NCBI GenBank assembly: GCA_039808885.1
Contig: JBDHTX010000010.1
Location: 2,403 to 66,402 of the forward strand
Origin: Dongiaceae bacterium
GTDB lineage: Bacteria; Pseudomonadota; Alphaproteobacteria; Dongiales; Dongiaceae
Direction: 5' to 3'
DNA length: 64,000 bases
The position numbers and the translations under genes are program-made. Below are positions 55,769 to 64,000 of the stretch, one piece after another (positions within the stretch are counted from its first letter, which is position 1; the number at the start of each line of letters is the position of its first letter). The notes under the pieces are model-generated. The model saw only the letters and a list, made by a program, of their open reading frames with translations, did no database searches and was not told the DNA's origin.

Positions 55769-57268
55769 TCAGCCCTCCGGTGTCGCTGGCCGGCCAGTGG
55801 CCGCCTGCTCATCCACCCCACGCACCAGGGCCTCGCCCAGCGCGTTCTTGACGATCAGGTCGATCTGGCGAACGACCTGCAGCGCCTCCTTCAAGCGGTT
55901 CTGCTCCAGGTCCAGCAACCGGCGCACTTCCACCTGCGACGTGGCCGGCAGGCCGTTGCCGAGGTCGGCCAACTGCTGATCCAGGATCAAACCCAGGATC
56001 ATCTCATGGGCATCTAGCAGGCAGGCCAGATCGTCCTCGCCCAGGATCCCCGCTTCCATGGCGGCGCGCCAGCGCTCGCGCGAGGATCGCGCCCGGCAGC
56101 CCAGCCGCAGGGCCAGCACCCGCGCACCGGCAACGATCGGAAACAAGCCGCCGACCTTGAGGTCGATGCGGCCCTTCTGGGTCTTGAAGCGGCCGAACCA
56201 GCCGAGCGCGTCCTTCTTCTCCGAGATCGCCTTGGCCATCAGGTTGAGGAACAGGCGCGCCGTGCGGGCGCGCATCGAGACGTCGTTCAGGGCCTCGGCC
56301 AGCGCGCCGTCGCCGCCCGCGGCGGTGAAATCATAGAAGATGTCGGCATTGAGGATCGCACGCGGCTCCGGCCGCTCGAACCAGATGGAGATGCTTTCCT
56401 GCCAGCCGGCCAGGTTGTGGCGCAGGTTGCGTTTCGACGCCATGACTCCGCCGCGGCAGAATGCCAGCCCAGCCTGGTTCAGCACGTGCGCCACGCGCTC
56501 GCCGAATTCCTGGAACCAGGGGTAGTCGTCCTCGGCGCCGCCGTGGATCAAGGAGTTGTCCTGGTCGGCGGAAAGCAGGCTCTCGCCCCGCCCCGCCGAG
56601 CCGAGCACGAGCAGGCACCACGAGGCCGGAGCCTCTCCGCGACGCTCCGCTTGCATGGACGCCGATGCCAGTTCGCCCGCGCGCGCGGTCATGTCCCGGA
56701 TGACACCGGAAATCACCGCGGCGACCTGGTATGCCGGAACGCCCTCGGCGCGCAGCGACCGCCCCAGTTCGGGCAGCCGCCCATATGCCGCCTTCAGGCC
56801 CCGCCAATCGGTCGCCTCGGCGACCATGTCGGCGATGCCGAGAGCAACCATTGCGCGCTGGCGCAGCACCGACCGCGCGTCCAGCAGGCCGGCATAGCGG
56901 CCGTCGGGCGCAACAGCCGCGAGATGACGGAACCCAAGACGGCTCATCCGCGCGATCGCCACGTAGAGAAGGGCATCGGCCCGCACCGTCGCGACCGGCG
57001 TGCTCATGATCGCGGTGATCGGCGCGGTCATCGGGGCGCCGCCGGCGGTGACCTTGCACAGCACGTCGCGCTCGGTGACGATTCCGATCGGACGGCCGTC
57101 GCCATCGAGGACAATTGTCGCGCTGGCCGGTCCGTGGACCAGCGCCTCCACGGCCGCCGCGACGCTGGCGCCGGGTTCCAGCGTGCGCGCCACGGGGTTC
57201 ATCAGCTCGCCGACCCGATGCTGGAACGGGAACGGGTCAACGCGCGTCACGGGAGCCGTCTCGGTCAT
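55769..57268 (-). CDS. CBS-pair + DUF294 nucleotidyltransferase + DUF294_C protein
   Basis: Two CBS domains (GIVTERD; RHLAAV); LGSAGRGE...DQDN nucleotidyltransferase motif; IDLKVGGLFP; no cNMP-binding domain. Confidence 0.88.
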   Translation of the reverse strand: MTETAPVTRVDPFPFQHRVGELMNPVARTLEPGASVAAAVEALVHGPASATIVLDGDGRPIGIVTERDVLCKVTAGGAPMTAPITAIMSTPVATVRADALLYVAIARMSRLGFRHLAAVAPDGRYAGLLDARSVLRQRAMVALGIADMVAEATDWRGLKAAYGRLPELGRSLRAEGVPAYQVAAVISGVIRDMTARAGELASASMQAERRGEAPASWCLLVLGSAGRGESLLSADQDNSLIHGGAEDDYPWFQEFGERVAHVLNQAGLAFCRGGVMASKRNLRHNLAGWQESISIWFERPEPRAILNADIFYDFTAAGGDGALAEALNDVSMRARTARLFLNLMAKAISEKKDALGWFGRFKTQKGRIDLKVGGLFPIVAGARVLALRLGCRARSSRERWRAAMEAGILGEDDLACLLDAHEMILGLILDQQLADLGNGLPATSQVEVRRLLDLEQNRLKEALQVVRQIDLIVKNALGEALVRGVDEQAATGRPATPEG

Positions 57269-58602
57269 GACGCGCCAATTCCCCGCACCCTGCCGCCCGC
57301 GCGGGCCAGGCGCTTGGCCGCCTCGGCCTGCAGCGCCTGCGCGCCCGCCAGGGTCGCGACCCCGCGCCCGACCAGGATCGGCACCAGGCGGGAATAGATC
57401 TCCGCCGTGGTGAGCGCGTCGCCCAGCGCGGAATGACGCCCGATCACCGGCACGTCGAAGGCGATTGCGAGGTCGTCCAGCAACAGCGATTTCGCCTCCG
57501 GAAACAGCGCGGCATAGAGCAGCATGACATCCAGGCTCGGTCCTGGCGACCAGTCGCGCCCGCATCGCCGCATCTCGCCTTGCAGCATCCGCAAATCGAA
57601 ATCGGTGTGGAAACCGATCAGGGCCAATCCGCTCGCCGCCGCCGCAACCTGCTCGGCGACGGCGGCAAAGGGCGGCGCGCCGGTGACCATGCTGTTCGAG
57701 ATGCCGTGAATGGCGATCGTGCGATTGGGGATGCTGCGGCCGGGATTGACCAGCAGGTTGAGCGTGGAAGACCGGTAGAGCCGCTCACCGTGCAGCCGGA
57801 TCGCGCCGATCGAGATGACCCGGTCGATGCGGGGATTCAAGCCAGTGGTCTCGGTATCGACAGCAAGCGCCGAGAGCTCCGAGAGGGCCGTTCCCGGCCC
57901 GGGCGTCACCGGCACGGGCGGGCGGTCGTGCAGCGACAGATCATGCTCGCCGCGCAAGGTTGCCGCCTCGGCCGCCGGATACCGCAGCAGCGCGCTGCCC
58001 TCCTGGCCGATCACCGTGACCGTCGCCGGGAAGGAGTCGGACCATATGGTGAAGAGCTCCGTATCCACCGGCCGTCCCGCGGCGCGGGCCCGGTGGATGG
58101 CCTCACCCAGGGATTGCCGCGACAGGGTTTCGAACACGCTCTTGCCGATGACCCGCTCGGCGTCGCCGAACAGCGGCCGGCCCGCCGTGTTCACCAGGCT
58201 GATCAGACCTTCCTGGGTCAGCACGGCGATGCCGTCCGGCAGCGCGTTCAGCACCTCTTCCAGGCGGCGGTACACCGTCGATTGCTGGTCCGTGCGCAGG
58301 CCGATCATGTCGATGATGGCGAGTTGGACGCGGTCCACGGCGTCGGCGTCGGGCGCGACGTCGCGGCGCGCCAGGTCCTGCTGCCCGGCCACCAGGTTGA
58401 CCCAGCCCCGCAGGGCCTCGACCCGCAGTTCCAGCTGCCGCCCTTTGCGGAGCAGCAGCAGGCCGCCGCCGCCAGCGAGGACCGCGAGGCACGCGGTCAC
58501 CAGATGCGCCGCCAGGCCCGGCGGCGCGGCGTCAAACCAGACCATGGCGGCCAACCCGCCGGCACCGAGGATTACCGCTCCAAGACCGAATTCCGTGCGC
58601 AT
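57265..58602 (-). CDS. Membrane-anchored 2TM-PAS-DEDDh (DnaQ-like) 3'-5' exonuclease-fold protein
   Basis: Two hydrophobic helices; PAS LNALPDGIAVL; VDTETTGL, HTDFD, HSALGDA. Confidence 0.85.
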   Translation of the reverse strand: MRTEFGLGAVILGAGGLAAMVWFDAAPPGLAAHLVTACLAVLAGGGGLLLLRKGRQLELRVEALRGWVNLVAGQQDLARRDVAPDADAVDRVQLAIIDMIGLRTDQQSTVYRRLEEVLNALPDGIAVLTQEGLISLVNTAGRPLFGDAERVIGKSVFETLSRQSLGEAIHRARAAGRPVDTELFTIWSDSFPATVTVIGQEGSALLRYPAAEAATLRGEHDLSLHDRPPVPVTPGPGTALSELSALAVDTETTGLNPRIDRVISIGAIRLHGERLYRSSTLNLLVNPGRSIPNRTIAIHGISNSMVTGAPPFAAVAEQVAAAASGLALIGFHTDFDLRMLQGEMRRCGRDWSPGPSLDVMLLYAALFPEAKSLLLDDLAIAFDVPVIGRHSALGDALTTAEIYSRLVPILVGRGVATLAGAQALQAEAAKRLARAGGRVRGIGAS

Positions 58603-58700
58603 TCACCCTGCCCCGCCGGCGCCCACAGGAGCCCTTCGACCAGCTTCACAGCTTAAGGCTAGCCCTCCGGCAAGGGAATTCCATTGCCCAGAATGCCGCG

Positions 58701-58726
58701 CCGGGACCTTGCCCGGGACCTTGCCC
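58701..58726. repeat. Exact 12-bp tandem duplication in a divergent promoter region
   Basis: CCGGGACCTTGC twice (58701-58724). Confidence 0.8.
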
Positions 58727-58839
58727 AAGACCCGCCCGGCCCGTCGGTCTTTGCTGTTGCCAGCCATTTCGAAGGGTTGAATGATGCCCTGACGGGCGCG
58801 CCGAAGCGCGAATCCGGTGCGGCAGGGCAAGGTCCGGCG

Positions 58840-61419
58840 ATGGCGGTTTCTCAGGTCGAATCACGCGAACAGGGCTGGAGCGACGCCCTTCAGCCGGCGG
58901 CGTTGCGGCAGGCGGTCCTGATCGCCGGCGGCTATTTCCTGTGCTTCTGGATCGGCTATTCCTTTGCCGCCGACCACAACATTTCCGTGGTCTGGCCGCC
59001 CAGCGGCTTCGCCCTGGCGATGGTCTACCGGTTCGGCGTCCGCGCCGTCGCCCCCATCTGGATCGCCGATGCGCTGGCGCAACTGATCTTGATCGGCGCG
59101 CCGTTCCTGCCCTCGGTCCTGCTTCCCGCCCGCGCCGTCGCCGAACCGCTGATCGCCGTCCTTCTGCTGCGCCTCGTCGGCTTCGACCAGCGGCTGCGGC
59201 GGCCGCGCGACATCGCCGCCATGGTCCTGGTGGGAGCGCCGATCAGCACGCTGCTCAATGCGCTGGCCACGCTCTACATTTCCTGCGTGCAAGGCGCCGT
59301 CCCATGGGCGGATTACTGGCATCACGTCCTGATCTATTGGGCCGGCAACGCCGGGGGCATCCTCACGCTGGCGCCGGGCCTGCTCATCATCTTCGATCGC
59401 GATGCCGCCTCGGGCAACGTGCAACACTGGATCGAGGCCCTGGCCTTGTGCCTGCTGGCCTCCTTCGTGCTGCAGATCCCGCTGATGCTGCCGGACGTGC
59501 CGGAAGGTCCGACCGCGGTCTATTTCATCTTCCCGATGGTGGCGTGGATTGCGATGCGGGTGCCGCGACGCGTCGCCGTCACGGTGACGCTCGGAATCTC
59601 GGCAGCGATCCTGCTGACGCTCCAGCTCGCCGCCGACCATCCGCTGGGCGGGCTGTCGCTGATGGACGCGCCGGTCGGCATCCAGAGCTTCATCGCCTGC
59701 CTCAACCTGACCTGCCTGCTGCTGGCGGCGCTCAACCTGGAAAAGACCGAGATCGCCGCCCGGCTGCGCGAGAACGAGCAATTCCTCCGCCTTGCCATCC
59801 TGGGCAGCAATGACGGCATCTGGGACTGGCACCCGCGGGAACAGAGACTCTGGCTGTCGCCGCGCTGGAAGGCTCAGCTCGGCTATGGGCCCGATGAACT
59901 GCCGGATACGCCCGCCACCTGGTCGGCCCTGGTCCACCCGGAGGATCGTGAGCGGGTCGCCCAGCGGTTCAGCGACTTCCTGGAGGACCGCAGCGAATCC
60001 TTCGAGCAGGTCCAGCGCTTCCGGCACAAGCTGGGCCATGACGTCCACATCCTGACCCGCGGCATCAAGATGATCGCGGATGACGGCACGGTCATCCGCG
60101 TCGTCGGCGTGCATACCGACGTGACCGAACTGGTCAACGTGCAGGACGAGTTGCGCCACCAGGCGGCCTCGCTCGCCAGCCTTGCCCGCGGCCTGGAGGA
60201 GCAGCGGCGCGCGGCCGACGCGGCCAGCGCCGCCAAGTCACAGTTCCTCGCCACCATGAGCCACGAGATCCGCACGCCGATGAACGGCATCATCGGCATG
60301 CTGTCGCTGATGCTGGATTCGCCGCTGGACCGGGAACAGCGCCGCTGGACCACCAGCGCGCTCGATTCTGCCGAGACCCTGCTCACCATCATCAACGACA
60401 TCCTCGACCTGTCCAAGCTCGACGCCGGCAAGACCGAGGTGGAGTCGCTCGATTTCGACGCCACCGCGCTGATCGACGGTGTCGTCGCGCTGCTGCAGGT
60501 CCGCGCCAACGCCAAGGGCATCGCGCTGCACACGCAGATCGCCGACAACATGCCGGCGCGGCTGCGCTCCGATCCCACGCGGCTGCGCCAGATCCTGTTC
60601 AACCTCGTCGGCAACGCTGTCAAGTTCACCAAGACCGGCGGCGTGCTGGTGCGCGCCGCGGTCGAATCCGTCCACGACGACACCTGCGAACTGCGCGTCG
60701 AGGTCGTCGACACCGGCATCGGCGTTGCTCCCGACCAGCTGCCCAATCTGTTCGAGCCGTTTCACCAGGCCGAGACCGGCATGACGCGACGCTACGGCGG
60801 CACCGGGCTCGGCCTCGCCATCGTGCGCCGCCTGATTCACCTGCTGGGCGGCAGCGTCACCGTGCGCAGCGAGATCGGCATCGGCAGCACCTTCACGATC
60901 CTGCTGCCCTGCCTGATCGCCGTCGCATCCCGCGGCCCGGCGCGGGACGTCGGCACCGGGCCGCTGCCGCGGCACGCCAAGGAGACCCGCATCCTGATCG
61001 CCGAGGACAATGCCATCAACCGCGAGCTGGCAACCCAGATGCTGGCGCGGCTCGGCCTGACGGGGACCACCGTCAACAACGGTCGGGAAGCCGTTGCCGC
61101 CGCGTCCGCAGGCCTTTTCGACATTATCCTGATGGACATTCAGATGCCGGAGATGGACGGCCTGGCGGCCGCCGCCGCAATCCGCAAGCTGCCCGGCCTC
61201 CTGGGCCGGGTGCCGATCGTCGCGGTCACCGCGAATGCCATGGTCGGCGACCGGGAACGTTACCTGGCGGCCGGATTCGACGACTACCTGGCGAAGCCGC
61301 TGCGTCTCGAGCAGCTCTCCGAGATCATCCTGCGTTGGACCGGAGAGCTGCCGCCATCCCGGTCGACGGGTACCGGCCGTGATGGCGACGCCGTCCCGAC
61401 CGATTCCGGAGAGCGGTGA
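58840..61419 (+). CDS. Hybrid histidine kinase MASE1-PAS-HisKA-HATPase-REC (start uncertain)
   Basis: MASE1-like N-terminus VVWPPSG; [11 protein letters not shown]; [11 protein letters not shown]; [10 protein letters not shown]; GGTGLGL; ILMDIQMP; no HPt. Confidence 0.9.
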
Positions 61420-61422
61420 CCG

Positions 61423-62940
61423 ATGCCGACAGCGTCGATGCGTCTGCGGGTCGGGCTGATCGTGGCCCTGGTTTCATTGTCGCTGGCCATCGCCTTCGTG
61501 GCGCAGAAATTGCACGCGGGTTCGGCCGATGCGGGTGCCGGTTCGGGCAGCTGGTACGTCGCCCTGGTGCTGATGCTGGTCAGCCTCGCGGTCCTCGGGT
61601 ACCTGCTTCTGGCCCTTGCGCGCGACAAGGCGGGCGAGAGCGCCGCCGCAAGAAACGAAGCCGCGCAAGCTTTGCTGGAGACCGCCGCCGCGACCGCGCC
61701 CAAGCCCGTGGACCTGCGCCCGAGCTATTCCGTCCTGCCGTCGCCCGAGGCCGGCCACCTGGTGGCGACCGGCGCCCTGATCCGCCGGTTGTGCCACGAG
61801 CTCAACAACGCGCTTGGACCGATCCAGGGCTTTGCGGAGCTGCTTGGCAACGATCAGCGGATCGGCGAGGCGCAGCGGCGGCAAGTGACCAAGATCGGCG
61901 AGGCGACGGCCGCCGCCCAGAGCGCGGTCCAGGACTTCGCCGCCGCGTTGACCTGGTCCAAGGACCACGCCACGGCGGTGAATCTGGGCGCGATGACGCG
62001 CGCCGCCGCCGCCGCCGCCCAGGCAGCGATCGGCCGGCCCATCGCGGTGACGCTGCCGCCCGGCCGGGACATCCAGATCACCGCGACCGAGGTGGAGACC
62101 GGGCAGGCGATCCTGCACCTGTGCGCGGCGCTTACACCGCTCATCGCCGAGCGCGACGTACGGCTGGAGATCGCGGTCGATTCGGCAGTCGGCGCGGCCC
62201 GCTCGAGTTTGGGCGACGGCGCCGCCTCCGGGCAGCGATTGCAGATCTGGTCCGACCCGTTCGATCCTGAGCACGCCAGGGTCCAGCTCGGCCTGCTGCA
62301 GAGCAGCTGGCGCTACGGCCGGGTCCAGCTCACCTGTGTCGGCCACGGCTGGTCACGTGACCTGGCGAGCCGGCTGTTCGTCGCCGACCTCACGGAAGAG
62401 CACCATCCGAGCTGCCTTTCGATGACCGTGCTCGGCGGGTTGATGCTGGATCTGGGCGGCGTGGTCATGATCGACACCTGTCCGCTGCGACAGCTGACGG
62501 TCACCCTGCTGTGGCCGGCGCGCATCCCCTCGGAGGTCGCCGCCCCGCTGGAGACCGACACCACGGAGGACGATCTCGACGCGCTCATCATCCACGCAGC
62601 CGAGCCGGCGGCGGAAGAGCTGTCGCGGCGGCTGGGTGGCTTCGGCTTGAGGGTGGCTTCCACCACCAGCCCGGAAGCCGGGCTAGACCTCATCGCCGAA
62701 ATGGGGGCGCGGTGCCGCGCCATCCTGCTCGGCGATACGCCGGACGCCGCATTGCTGGAAAAGATCCTCGCCATCCGACCGAGCGCCGTGGTCCTCACCC
62801 TGGAGGCCGAGCCCGGCACGACGCTGGAGGGCCAGGAAGCCTGGCAGATAGATCCCGATCGGGAGGCTCTGGGCCGCCTCGCGGCCCGCCTGCGCCGTGG
62901 CGGCACGCTTCCTCCCGAAGGCTGGGACGCCGCTAGCTGA
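61423..62940 (+). CDS. Membrane-anchored pseudo-histidine kinase / putative phosphotransferase with a degenerate receiver
   Basis: Two TM helices; H-box RRLCHELNNALGPIQGFAELL; N, G1 and G2 boxes degenerate; receiver lacks the acidic pair and the Lys. Confidence 0.7.
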   Translation: MPTASMRLRVGLIVALVSLSLAIAFVAQKLHAGSADAGAGSGSWYVALVLMLVSLAVLGYLLLALARDKAGESAAARNEAAQALLETAAATAPKPVDLRPSYSVLPSPEAGHLVATGALIRRLCHELNNALGPIQGFAELLGNDQRIGEAQRRQVTKIGEATAAAQSAVQDFAAALTWSKDHATAVNLGAMTRAAAAAAQAAIGRPIAVTLPPGRDIQITATEVETGQAILHLCAALTPLIAERDVRLEIAVDSAVGAARSSLGDGAASGQRLQIWSDPFDPEHARVQLGLLQSSWRYGRVQLTCVGHGWSRDLASRLFVADLTEEHHPSCLSMTVLGGLMLDLGGVVMIDTCPLRQLTVTLLWPARIPSEVAAPLETDTTEDDLDALIIHAAEPAAEELSRRLGGFGLRVASTTSPEAGLDLIAEMGARCRAILLGDTPDAALLEKILAIRPSAVVLTLEAEPGTTLEGQEAWQIDPDREALGRLAARLRRGGTLPPEGWDAAS

Positions 62941-63559
62941 ACTGCCCCAATTGCGCCAGTCGAACCGCGATCTGGGTGCGGTTCTTGGTCTCCAGCTTGC
63001 GACACAGGTTGCGCACGTGCAGCTTGACGGTGACCTCCTGCAGCTCGAGCGCGCGGGCGATTTCCTTGTTGGAAGCGCCCTTTACCAGCATGGCGGCCAC
63101 TTCGAGCTCGCGCGGCGTCAGGAATTCCGACCCGATGATCTTGAGCCCCTCGGGCGCCGCCCCTGGACGGAGCAGATCCGTCGGGGCGTAGGTCTCCCCG
63201 GCCGCCAGCTGACGGATCGCGGCGATCAGCTTGCTGCCAGAGAGCGTCTTGGGAATGAAGCCGCGGGCGCCAGCCGCCAGGGCCGACATCGCGTGCGACT
63301 TCGAGACCATGCCGGTGATGATCGCGACGGCCGAGCCCGGACAATGCGCGACCATCCGTTTCAGGCCCTCGAGGCCGTTCATCCCGGGCATATTGAGATC
63401 CAGCAAAGTCACGTCGTAGCAGCCATTGGCCAGAACCATTGCCCAGGCGTCTTCGAAATTCCGTGCCGTCTCGACACTGGATTCGGGCGCGTGACGCTCA
63501 ATCATGGCCTTGAACCCGTCACACACCAACTCGTGATCGTCCGCCAGAAGAATTCGCAC
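62933..63559 (-). CDS. NarL/LuxR-family response regulator
   Basis: ILLADDH, LLDLNMP, GFIPK, LTPRELEV...SNKEIA...TVKLHV; GTG start. Confidence 0.92.
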   Translation of the reverse strand: MRILLADDHELVCDGFKAMIERHAPESSVETARNFEDAWAMVLANGCYDVTLLDLNMPGMNGLEGLKRMVAHCPGSAVAIITGMVSKSHAMSALAAGARGFIPKTLSGSKLIAAIRQLAAGETYAPTDLLRPGAAPEGLKIIGSEFLTPRELEVAAMLVKGASNKEIARALELQEVTVKLHVRNLCRKLETKNRTQIAVRLAQLGQFS

Positions 63560-63662
63560 CCAGCCGCCCCAGCACTGTTGCGCGTGGATTTTCGGGACAC
63601 TACGTCCAAAAAGCGGTTGTGGAAAGATCAAAGGGTGGGTCCAGAGGACTACCCCATCCGGG

Positions 63663-64000
63663 CTAGAATCCCCGGAGGGGCAGGTCCGGCCCCCGGCGCA
63701 GCCAGTTGTCGGCGGGATAGCGGCACGCGCCATCGACCACGTGCAGCGTATAGGCATGCCGCGATCGGTCCGACAGGTTGGCGCCGGAGAAATGCGGCAG
63801 CAGGCCGTGGATCACCACGAGGGATCCGCGCCTCGCCTCCAGGGCGACTCGCGGGCCGTCCGACCAGGGCGTGGCATCCAGGCGTTCCGTCACCAGCCGG
63901 CCGTCGCGGCGCAGGAAGCGCGTCTTCATCGGCTGCTTGTGCGCCCCCGGCAGGCAGATCATGGCGCCGTTTTCCAGCGTCGCATCCTCCACCGCGAACC
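63663..64000 (-). CDS. 3' part of a second PhyH-family dioxygenase (truncated by the window edge)
   Basis: FAVEDATLENGAM...PGAH; IHGLLPHFSGANLS...RHAYTLH. Confidence 0.8.
   Translation of the reverse strand, partial: FAVEDATLENGAMICLPGAHKQPMKTRFLRRDGRLVTERLDATPWSDGPRVALEARRGSLVVIHGLLPHFSGANLSDRSRHAYTLHVVDGACRYPADNWLRRGPDLPLRGF

Follow-up and report, generated by a model that had tools for sequence, protein, structure and literature searches.

The stretch of DNA analysed here, which we call the window, comprises 64,000 nucleotides from a Dongiaceae bacterium (contig JBDHTX010000010.1 of assembly GCA_039808885.1, positions 2,403 to 66,402). It carries a hybrid sensor kinase gene, the pseudo-kinase gene P0001 and, convergent with these, the gene of a NarL-type response regulator. 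P0001 is an independently degenerated CckA/PRK13557-type hybrid kinase that is anchored in the membrane and retains an invariant histidine, His125. We tentatively propose that it may act as an ATP-independent histidine relay from the receiver of the kinase to the regulator. The genes and domains of this module are:

58684..61419, plus strand: hybrid sensor kinase, MASE1-PAS-HisKA-HATPase_c-receiver (Pfam, NCBIfam)
about 58915-59736, plus strand: MASE1 domain of the kinase (Pfam/NCBIfam)
about 59785-60123, plus strand: PAS domain of the kinase (Pfam/NCBIfam)
60232-60429, plus strand: HisKA domain of the kinase (Pfam/NCBIfam)
60571-60909, plus strand: HATPase_c domain of the kinase (Pfam/NCBIfam)
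60991-61329, plus strand: receiver of the kinase, phospho-Asp D818 (Pfam/NCBIfam)
61423..62940, plus strand: pseudo-kinase gene P0001, 505 aa, translationally coupled to the kinase, 83 orthologues
61438..61635, plus strand: membrane anchor of P0001, transmembrane (TM) helices TM1 (residues 6-32) and TM2 (residues 43-71) (Kyte-Doolittle peaks at ~17 and ~55; AlphaFold2 (AF2) helices)
61636..61743, plus strand: variable linker, residues 72-107, with a predicted local distance difference test (pLDDT) below 50; the least conserved segment (majority fraction 0.39)
61744..61950, plus strand: DHp hairpin, residues 108-176, H box LCHELNN (Pfam HisKA; AF2 helices 108-142 and 149-176)
61960..62526, plus strand: pseudo-CA, residues 180-368, Bergerat fold with the ATP boxes destroyed (VIA; motif mapping; 30 invariant columns)
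62527..62574, plus strand: acidic linker, residues 369-384, strongly conserved and predicted disordered
62575..62907, plus strand: pseudo-receiver, residues 385-495, (beta-alpha)5 fold (VIA; alignments; column counts)
62933..63559, minus strand: NarL/GacA-type response regulator, receiver plus GerE/LuxR helix-turn-helix, 208 aa from GTG 63559 (Pfam, NCBIfam)

The reading frame of P0001 is uninterrupted, and its ATG at 61423 lies 3 nt past the stop codon of the MASE1 kinase (TGA, 61417-61419), the spacing given in the original prediction. A GGAGAG sequence is found 8 nt 5' of this ATG, within the last codons of the kinase gene. In the relatives, including the contigs of a divergent homologue with 28% identity (P0094), the 3-nt gap is replaced by a 4-nt ATGA overlap, and the two genes are translationally coupled in every genome examined. 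The codon of His125 (CAC, 61795-61797) lies inside RRLCHELNNALG.

A Pfam scan of the protein (E<=0.1) returned HisKA alone, over residues 118-171 and with 23.3 bits (cut-off 26.9), with no HATPase_c, Response_reg, Hpt or PF10090 match; in NCBIfam, it weakly matches PRK13557 and VirA-like hybrid kinases. The AF2 model has a mean pLDDT of 78. Arg or Lys residues stand beside both cytoplasmic ends of the TM pair and the outside loop that connects the helices has only about 10 residues, which is too short for a sensor domain; P0001 thus possesses an anchor and no sensor. No HAMP-like element was found in the linker of residues 72-107, and its poor conservation and low pLDDT indicate that the membrane part is not rigidly coupled to the domains beyond.

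What remains of the catalytic machinery was mapped by alignment to the nearest intact hybrid kinases:

H box: IAHDFNN in the intact kinases, LCHELNN in P0001
N box: N..N in the intact kinases, H232..A236 in P0001 (QAILHLCAAL, residues 228-237)
G1 box: DxGxG in the intact kinases, C305-V-G307-H-G309-W310 in P0001 (VGHGW, 306-310), the Asp gone and the glycines kept
F box: FDPFFTTK in the intact kinases, F319 only in P0001
G2 box: GxGLG in the intact kinases, absent from P0001
receiver acidic pair: DD in the intact kinases, H391/A392 in P0001
receiver phospho-Asp: D in the intact kinases, G437 in P0001
receiver beta3-alpha3 loop: full length in the intact kinases, 4 residues shorter in P0001
receiver Lys: K in the intact kinases, R492 in P0001

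Conservation was counted over 83 full-length orthologues, down to 44% identity, with P0094 considered in addition; these relatives are closely related, and genome counts are not independent. The replacement of the Asn by A236 and of the Asp by C or F at position 305, as well as the loss of FDPFFTTK and GxGLG, holds for all 83 members of the family. In the pseudo-receiver, column 391 is an Asp in 12 of the 83 sequences and the phospho-Asp column 437 holds G or A. The window protein's D438 falls one residue past the phospho-Asp position, in a column occupied by Q in 60 of the 83. The residues H125, N129, G307, G309, W310 and F319 are invariant (83/83), and E126 is retained in 78. Conservation of His125 had been set beforehand as a test able to refute the original prediction, and its invariance, together with the lost ATP boxes and receiver pocket, bears out the proposal of a TM-anchored pseudo-kinase with a histidine box.

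The degenerate domains are far from featureless. There are 55 invariant columns across the 83 orthologues, and the DHp is the most conserved segment. The pseudo-CA has invariants of its own that are specific to the family (H232, W276-S-D-P279, R297-Y-G299, G307-H-G-W310 and D351-T-x-P354), and in the acidic linker P375-L-E, D379, D383 and L385-D386 are invariant or nearly so. This linker (P-L-E-x-D-x-x-E-D-x-L-D) is among the best-conserved stretches of the protein despite its predicted disorder, and looks like a docking motif. Against the closest orthologue (L013, dS 0.34), the ratio of nonsynonymous to synonymous substitution (dN/dS) is 0.16 overall, with 0.18 in the DHp, 0.11 in the pseudo-CA and 0.12 in the acidic linker and pseudo-receiver, so that the domains described as wrecked are under purifying selection. 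These values were taken from L013 only, since dS is saturated (0.7-0.8) and estimates are unreliable for the relatives L014 and L015.

A functionless gene in decay was the other reading of this pattern, and the destruction of three of the four kinase/receiver signature sets could suggest one. It is effectively refuted: the frame is open in all orthologues, dN/dS is 0.16, 55 columns are invariant in 83 sequences, and P0094 shows the same pattern of degeneration together with H125 and N129. The shared degeneration that the original prediction had asked for is thus present, and P0001 is not decaying. Apparent internal stops in the orthologues of two genomes (G002, G003) were alignments that overran the natural stop, and the annotated orthologues are intact.

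The descent of P0001 can be read from both structure and sequence. Among the Foldseek matches of the model, full-length ShkA (DHp-CA-REC) ranks first, and the kinase cores of ZraS, KinB, CckA, GacS, RetS and LvrB come next. With VIA, the CA domains of LvrB, CckA and DivL matched the pseudo-CA at Z 14-15 (Z 14.9 for the CckA DHp-CA), and residues 383-498 matched receiver domains with Z 13.2-13.5 and a root-mean-square deviation of 2.3-2.6 Å over 108-109 residues. An exhaustive profile search of 1.84 billion representatives placed just 12 clusters, including several fragments, below 1e-30, and ordinary kinases followed at ~1e-20; the nearest sequences outside the family are PAS-HisKA-HATPase-REC kinases. 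When the family alignment was compared by hhalign with an ordinary hybrid kinase (P0127), the probability was 98% (E 1.4e-13, 334 columns), as opposed to 1.3% (E 0.039) with the genome's own ChpT. A search of the whole genome with PF10090 found that real ChpT (C51, 70 bits) and not the P0001 locus, and ChpT is not among the 50 matches listed by Foldseek or VIA for the P0001 model, an uninformative absence since real kinases fill both lists. By sequence, P0001 is therefore no relative of ChpT, and the suggestion that it is ChpT-like fails as a statement of descent. Likewise, P0001 does not belong to any of the named pseudo-kinase families with which it was compared. The names given with the orthologues assign the family to Dongia/Dongiaceae within the Rhodospirillales, and current annotations label its members "hypothetical protein" or "signal transduction histidine kinase."

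The two genes that flank P0001 encode proteins with intact receivers. The kinase reading frame opens at TTG 58684, and its exact start is uncertain, with orthologues aligning only from about residues 20-55. Over its full length, it is most like the unorthodox kinases of the TorS, BarA and LuxQ type (NCBIfam). Its receiver has E774/D775, D818, the Thr and the Lys, the catalytic residues are intact in 15 of 15 kinase orthologues, and only 22 residues follow the receiver, with no HPt, in line with the original description of an intact receiver lacking a downstream phosphotransferase domain. The regulator (NarL/MctR/GacA-like in NCBIfam) has intact D7/D8, D54, T82 and K104. It had been predicted as a downstream LuxR regulator with an intact Asp; the Asp is there, and the placement needs correcting, as the gene lies on the minus strand, convergent with P0001. 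The 3' ends of the two genes share 8 nt (62933-62940), leaving no room for separate terminators. The close convergent arrangement recurs in the relatives and on the L030 contig.

The three genes stay together. The order trpE(-) … kinase(+) pseudo-kinase(+) regulator(-) PhyH(-) is found in 12 of the 12 same-genus (Dongia) genomes that have P0001, and the kinase, pseudo-kinase and regulator block is also present on the P0094 contigs; the three-gene synteny proposed for relatives therefore holds in every relative having P0001. In the 12 same-genus genomes and on the P0094 contigs alike, the pseudo-kinase is 3'-adjacent to the regulator. With the queries used, the complete genome of a member of the same genus (G009) yielded none of the three genes, and the five genomes searched for the pseudo-kinase as well as the regulator (G009, G014, G015, G017, G020) gave no match to either. 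One of these, G020, belongs to another genus and carries, beside trpE, a MASE1 kinase of 1051 aa that is orthologous (45% identity) and ends in an HPt-like tail; this kinase (L037, G020 C1:146000-160000) is followed by a D-serine-dehydratase-like gene where Dongia has the pseudo-kinase and the regulator. The co-occurrence of pseudo-kinase and regulator, combined with the coupling to the kinase gene, indicates that P0001 tracks the regulator, as a bridge between the two would.

A comparison of the kinases themselves bears on where a second histidine could come from. In nine same-genus relatives (L016-L024, for example L017:7130-7519), the kinase is 110-130 residues longer and ends in a C-terminal tail with an HPt fold. 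This tail is absent from the window (61351-61419) and from the three closest relatives (L013, L014, L015). Pfam Hpt matches eight of the nine tails with 15-30 bits, one of them above the cut-off of 24.6. The AF2 model of the tail (pLDDT 80) is a bundle, and its top 14 Foldseek matches are almost all HPt domains, including those of a Shewanella kinase, HptB, ZmHP2 and ArcB, with TM-scores of 0.51-0.78 (~0.6-0.78 in most rows) and E-values of just 0.02-0.14. A profile search of the tail against the sequences of the PDB found no HPt, and hhalign of the tails with the genome's stand-alone HPt gave an insignificant probability of 0.2%, with the two His aligned to each other and a 3-residue gap. As these profile and hhalign searches gave no support, the HPt identity rests on Pfam and fold. 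The tail column that best fits the HPt His contains H in six sequences, N in one, R in two and A in two (the P0094 lineage and G020); in the P0094 lineage the tail is devoid of His, no other conserved His column exists in the tails, and the LKG is missing. With this His variable or the whole tail deleted, the kinase itself offers no universal second His. A second His is dependably present in the neighboring P0001, and the kinase receiver is always live.

Taken together, these features lead us to a tentative model, our leading reading although we would not wager heavily on it. P0001 would be a dimeric, membrane-tethered former hybrid histidine kinase that has kept a working DHp and lost ATP binding, and its own receiver would no longer be phosphorylatable. 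The MASE1-PAS kinase would autophosphorylate and pass the phosphoryl group to its own receiver at D818, from which it may move to H125 of P0001 by a reverse Asp-to-His transfer as in ChpT, Spo0B and PhyT, and finally to D54 of the NarL-type regulator, whose gene is convergent. The TM pair and the flexible linker behind it may do nothing more than keep P0001 beside the membrane kinase, and the pseudo-CA, acidic linker and pseudo-receiver may be docking or gating surfaces and not catalysts. Like most H-E-x-x-N DHp proteins, P0001 can probably also work in reverse and drain the regulator, the net direction of phosphate depending on the state of the kinase. We infer every one of these phosphotransfer steps; the anatomy of the protein, its conservation and descent, the synteny and the co-occurrence are observed. 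There is precedent for such a device: pseudo-kinases are an accepted class of His phosphotransferases (PMC9981736), and the membrane-anchored degenerate kinase PhyT was shown to carry phosphate between two receivers by way of its His (PMC5898713). The phyletic data strengthen the relay as the leading hypothesis, in that P0001 co-occurs with the regulator and many lineages have a kinase whose tail is missing or has no His.

A further, more doubtful step would give this relay a history. The role of second His, held by the HPt of an ancestral REC-HPt kinase, may have been handed to a tethered DHp pseudo-kinase of CckA-like origin. The kinase's own HPt would then have become redundant, and all stages of its decay would now be seen side by side, with the His kept, the His replaced, or the domain deleted as in the window.

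Several observations weigh against the relay. The beta4 motif of the kinase receiver is VTANA, and a TANA-containing motif is associated with the receivers of HPt-partnered hybrid kinases. It is not FATGUY-like, the kind of motif that has been linked to receivers working with DHp-type phosphotransferases (PMC9981736). Six of the same-genus kinases keep the tail His, and the classical route may persist there. The regulator gene is on the opposite strand, behind the PhyH gene, and is thus not in the P0001 operon. The H-E-x-x-N box is needed equally by a transmitter phosphatase (PMC5992135). Finally, two stand-alone HPt proteins of the canonical type, with HxLKG motifs, are encoded in the genome; both are possible partners of the kinase, and a genuine ChpT is present in addition:

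L033:2261-2773, plus strand: stand-alone HPt, 170 aa, HDLKGQGSSFG
L034:2021-2806, minus strand: stand-alone HPt with a receiver-like domain (partial Response_reg match), 261 aa, HNLKGLGGSFG
L035 (G000 C51:417-4527), minus strand: genuine ChpT, PF10090, H box KLCHDVISPIG, directly upstream of a CheA-receiver fusion gene

With these proteins available and a TANA motif in its receiver, the kinase does not necessarily depend on P0001, which weakens the original prediction, and a relay through P0001 is not forced. The stand-alone HPt proteins are alternative partners for the HPt-less hybrid kinases of the genome. A complex prediction that combined two copies of residues 105-372 of P0001 with the receiver of the regulator returned no answer (score 0.24, mark 0.34), and we conclude nothing from it. 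Co-variation of the P0001 H box with the state of the kinase tail showed no signal, the H box being constant (L023 not counted), and the DHp surface is too invariant among orthologues for a test of specificity residues or co-evolution.

The strongest competing explanation, which we consider possible and less probable than the relay, is a RetS-like attenuator or dedicated transmitter phosphatase. The DHp of P0001 would dephosphorylate the kinase receiver, the regulator or both, and may block the kinase by core-to-core contact, while the regulator would be phosphorylated by the kinase itself or through an HPt, be it the tail His where there is one or a stand-alone protein. The window kinase is BarA/TorS-like, the regulator is NarL/GacA-like and RetS kinase cores are among the fold matches of P0001; N129 is invariant in the family, the genome encodes canonical HPt proteins, and the TANA motif makes the kinase receiver look HPt-partnered. 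RetS itself is a degenerate HATPase without G boxes that carries an HExxT motif and, as a transmitter phosphatase, removes phosphate from the receiver of GacS, a BarA-type kinase with the NarL-type GacA as its regulator (PMC5992135). However, P0001 has no Asp in its pseudo-receiver, which makes the phosphate-sink mechanism of RetS impossible, and it has no sensor domain through which an attenuator could be controlled. Its phyletic distribution follows the regulator and not the kinase. The strict invariance of the His also speaks against an attenuator: in HisKA kinases, the His is required for transfer and is often dispensable for phosphatase activity. Without the sensor and the sink receiver of RetS, and tracking the regulator, P0001 is better explained by the relay, and we rank a RetS-like role second.

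It is rather improbable that P0001 is a non-catalytic scaffold or allosteric partner, DivL-like in role only, that binds the kinase, tethers the unphosphorylated regulator to the membrane, or does both, and keeps its His for reasons of structure or recognition. The many family-specific invariants in the pseudo-CA, acidic linker and pseudo-receiver do suggest binding surfaces, P0001 is a membrane tether without a sensor, and PhyT sequesters PhyR at the membrane (PMC5898713). Yet the full H-E-x-x-N box is kept down to 28% identity, which a pure scaffold would not need, and DivL itself is without the His. Least credible among the functional alternatives, and very unlikely in our view, is residual kinase activity, either as an autokinase with non-canonical ATP binding or as a heterodimer in which the CA of the neighboring kinase phosphorylates P0001 in trans. 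The Bergerat fold persists, as do G307, G309 and G346, and translational coupling of the two genes would favor a mixed complex; against this, none of the 83 sequences has the Asn for Mg binding, the Asp for adenine binding, the F box or the G2 lid, and the DHps of P0001 and the kinase are of different HisKA subtypes.

Beyond these three genes, the regulator is preceded by a further gene that is also syntenic in the relatives:

63663..64000, minus strand: PhyH-family dioxygenase gene, 3' part, 103 nt upstream of the regulator

Past the end of the window (L032, G000 C10:66000-78000), the minus strand carries a nucleoside-catabolism cluster with a cytidine deaminase, a PNP/UDP phosphorylase, a DeoC aldolase and a phosphopentomutase-like metalloenzyme, followed by the PhyH gene and then the regulator. 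These genes are possible co-transcripts or targets. On the other side, between trpE and the kinase, the minus strand (55769-58602) encodes a CBS-DUF294 putative nucleotidyltransferase and a PAS-RNase T-type exonuclease. About half of the relatives (L013, L015, L018, L019, L023) have this pair and the others lack it, indicating an insertion or deletion at the site. Two open reading frames (ORFs) of the plus strand were discarded: ORF 57433-58656 is a less conserved shadow of the minus-strand PAS-exonuclease gene, with no Pfam match, and ORF 62897-64000 has no Pfam or NCBIfam match.

Pseudo-kinases that keep only the DHp His are a small known class (ChpT, Spo0B, PhyT and partly RetS) of independent origins and poor annotation. 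The P0001 family adds a fourth independent origin and a new layout of TM anchor, DHp, pseudo-CA and pseudo-receiver. The hand-over described above, if true, would be a natural replacement of an HPt by a DHp module within one genus, and P0001 would then stand for a new family of His phosphotransferases restricted to the Dongiaceae, its built-in pseudo-receiver serving for docking or gating. The clean three-gene module and the natural series of kinases with and without the HPt-like tail offer a system for studying how phosphorelays are rewired, and the family is also convenient for asking which functions "dead" yet conserved CA and receiver domains perform. No new category of signalling is opened by this family, and it is confined to one soil/freshwater alphaproteobacterial lineage.

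In the literature searched, we found no description of a TM anchor-DHp-pseudo-CA-pseudo-receiver protein whose gene is coupled to that of a hybrid kinase and faces that of a NarL-type regulator. To this extent the original view of an undescribed architecture stands; in function it has precedents in PhyT, RcsD, RetS, Spo0B and ChpT, and the P0001 family, though new, represents a kind of device already known and introduces no new principle. The best functional analogue of the proposed mechanism is PhyT (PhyP) of the general stress response of Sphingomonas melonis, which shares with P0001 the membrane anchor, the degenerate ATPase domain and the conserved DHp His. PhyT takes phosphate from the receiver SdrG, gives it to PhyR and holds PhyR at the membrane (PMC5898713). 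It is nevertheless unrelated in descent, with an HRxxN box of the HWE/HisKA_2 type, a putative periplasmic sensor, no pseudo-receiver and a place in the phyR locus, whereas P0001 has a HisKA HELNN box, a loop of ~10 residues, a C-terminal pseudo-receiver, and a hybrid kinase and a NarL-type regulator as partners.

The soluble ChpT and Spo0B resemble P0001 in design and not in descent: both combine a DHp hairpin bearing the His with a CA-like domain unable to bind ATP, and both relay between the receiver of a hybrid kinase (or a single-domain receiver) and a terminal regulator. The H box of the genome's ChpT (KLCHDVISPIG) is similar to that of P0001 (RLCHELNNALG), but P0001 is membrane-anchored, twice as long and provided with a pseudo-receiver. 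RetS of Pseudomonas aeruginosa is, like P0001, a relative of hybrid kinases with a degenerate HATPase and a retained HExx(T/N) box (PMC5992135); it differs by its large periplasmic sensor, by a phosphorylatable receiver whose D858 serves as the phosphate sink, and by a gene that is not coupled to gacS. The RcsC-RcsD-RcsB system has the same cast as the P0001 module, namely an HPt-less hybrid kinase, an inner-membrane pseudo-kinase with the second His and a NarL/FixJ-type regulator (PMC13614576). RcsD is built the other way around, with a large periplasmic domain, a kinase-like domain without His and the second His in a C-terminal HPt, whereas P0001 keeps the DHp His, has no HPt and ends in a receiver fold. 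A DivL-like identity, which had also been considered, does not fit, since DivL has its phospho-acceptor replaced by Tyr while the His of P0001 is invariant. Closest to P0001 in both sequence and fold are the ShkA/CckA-type hybrid kinases (PRK13557-like, with an HDFNN box), which, unlike P0001, are ATP-dependent kinases with working receivers.

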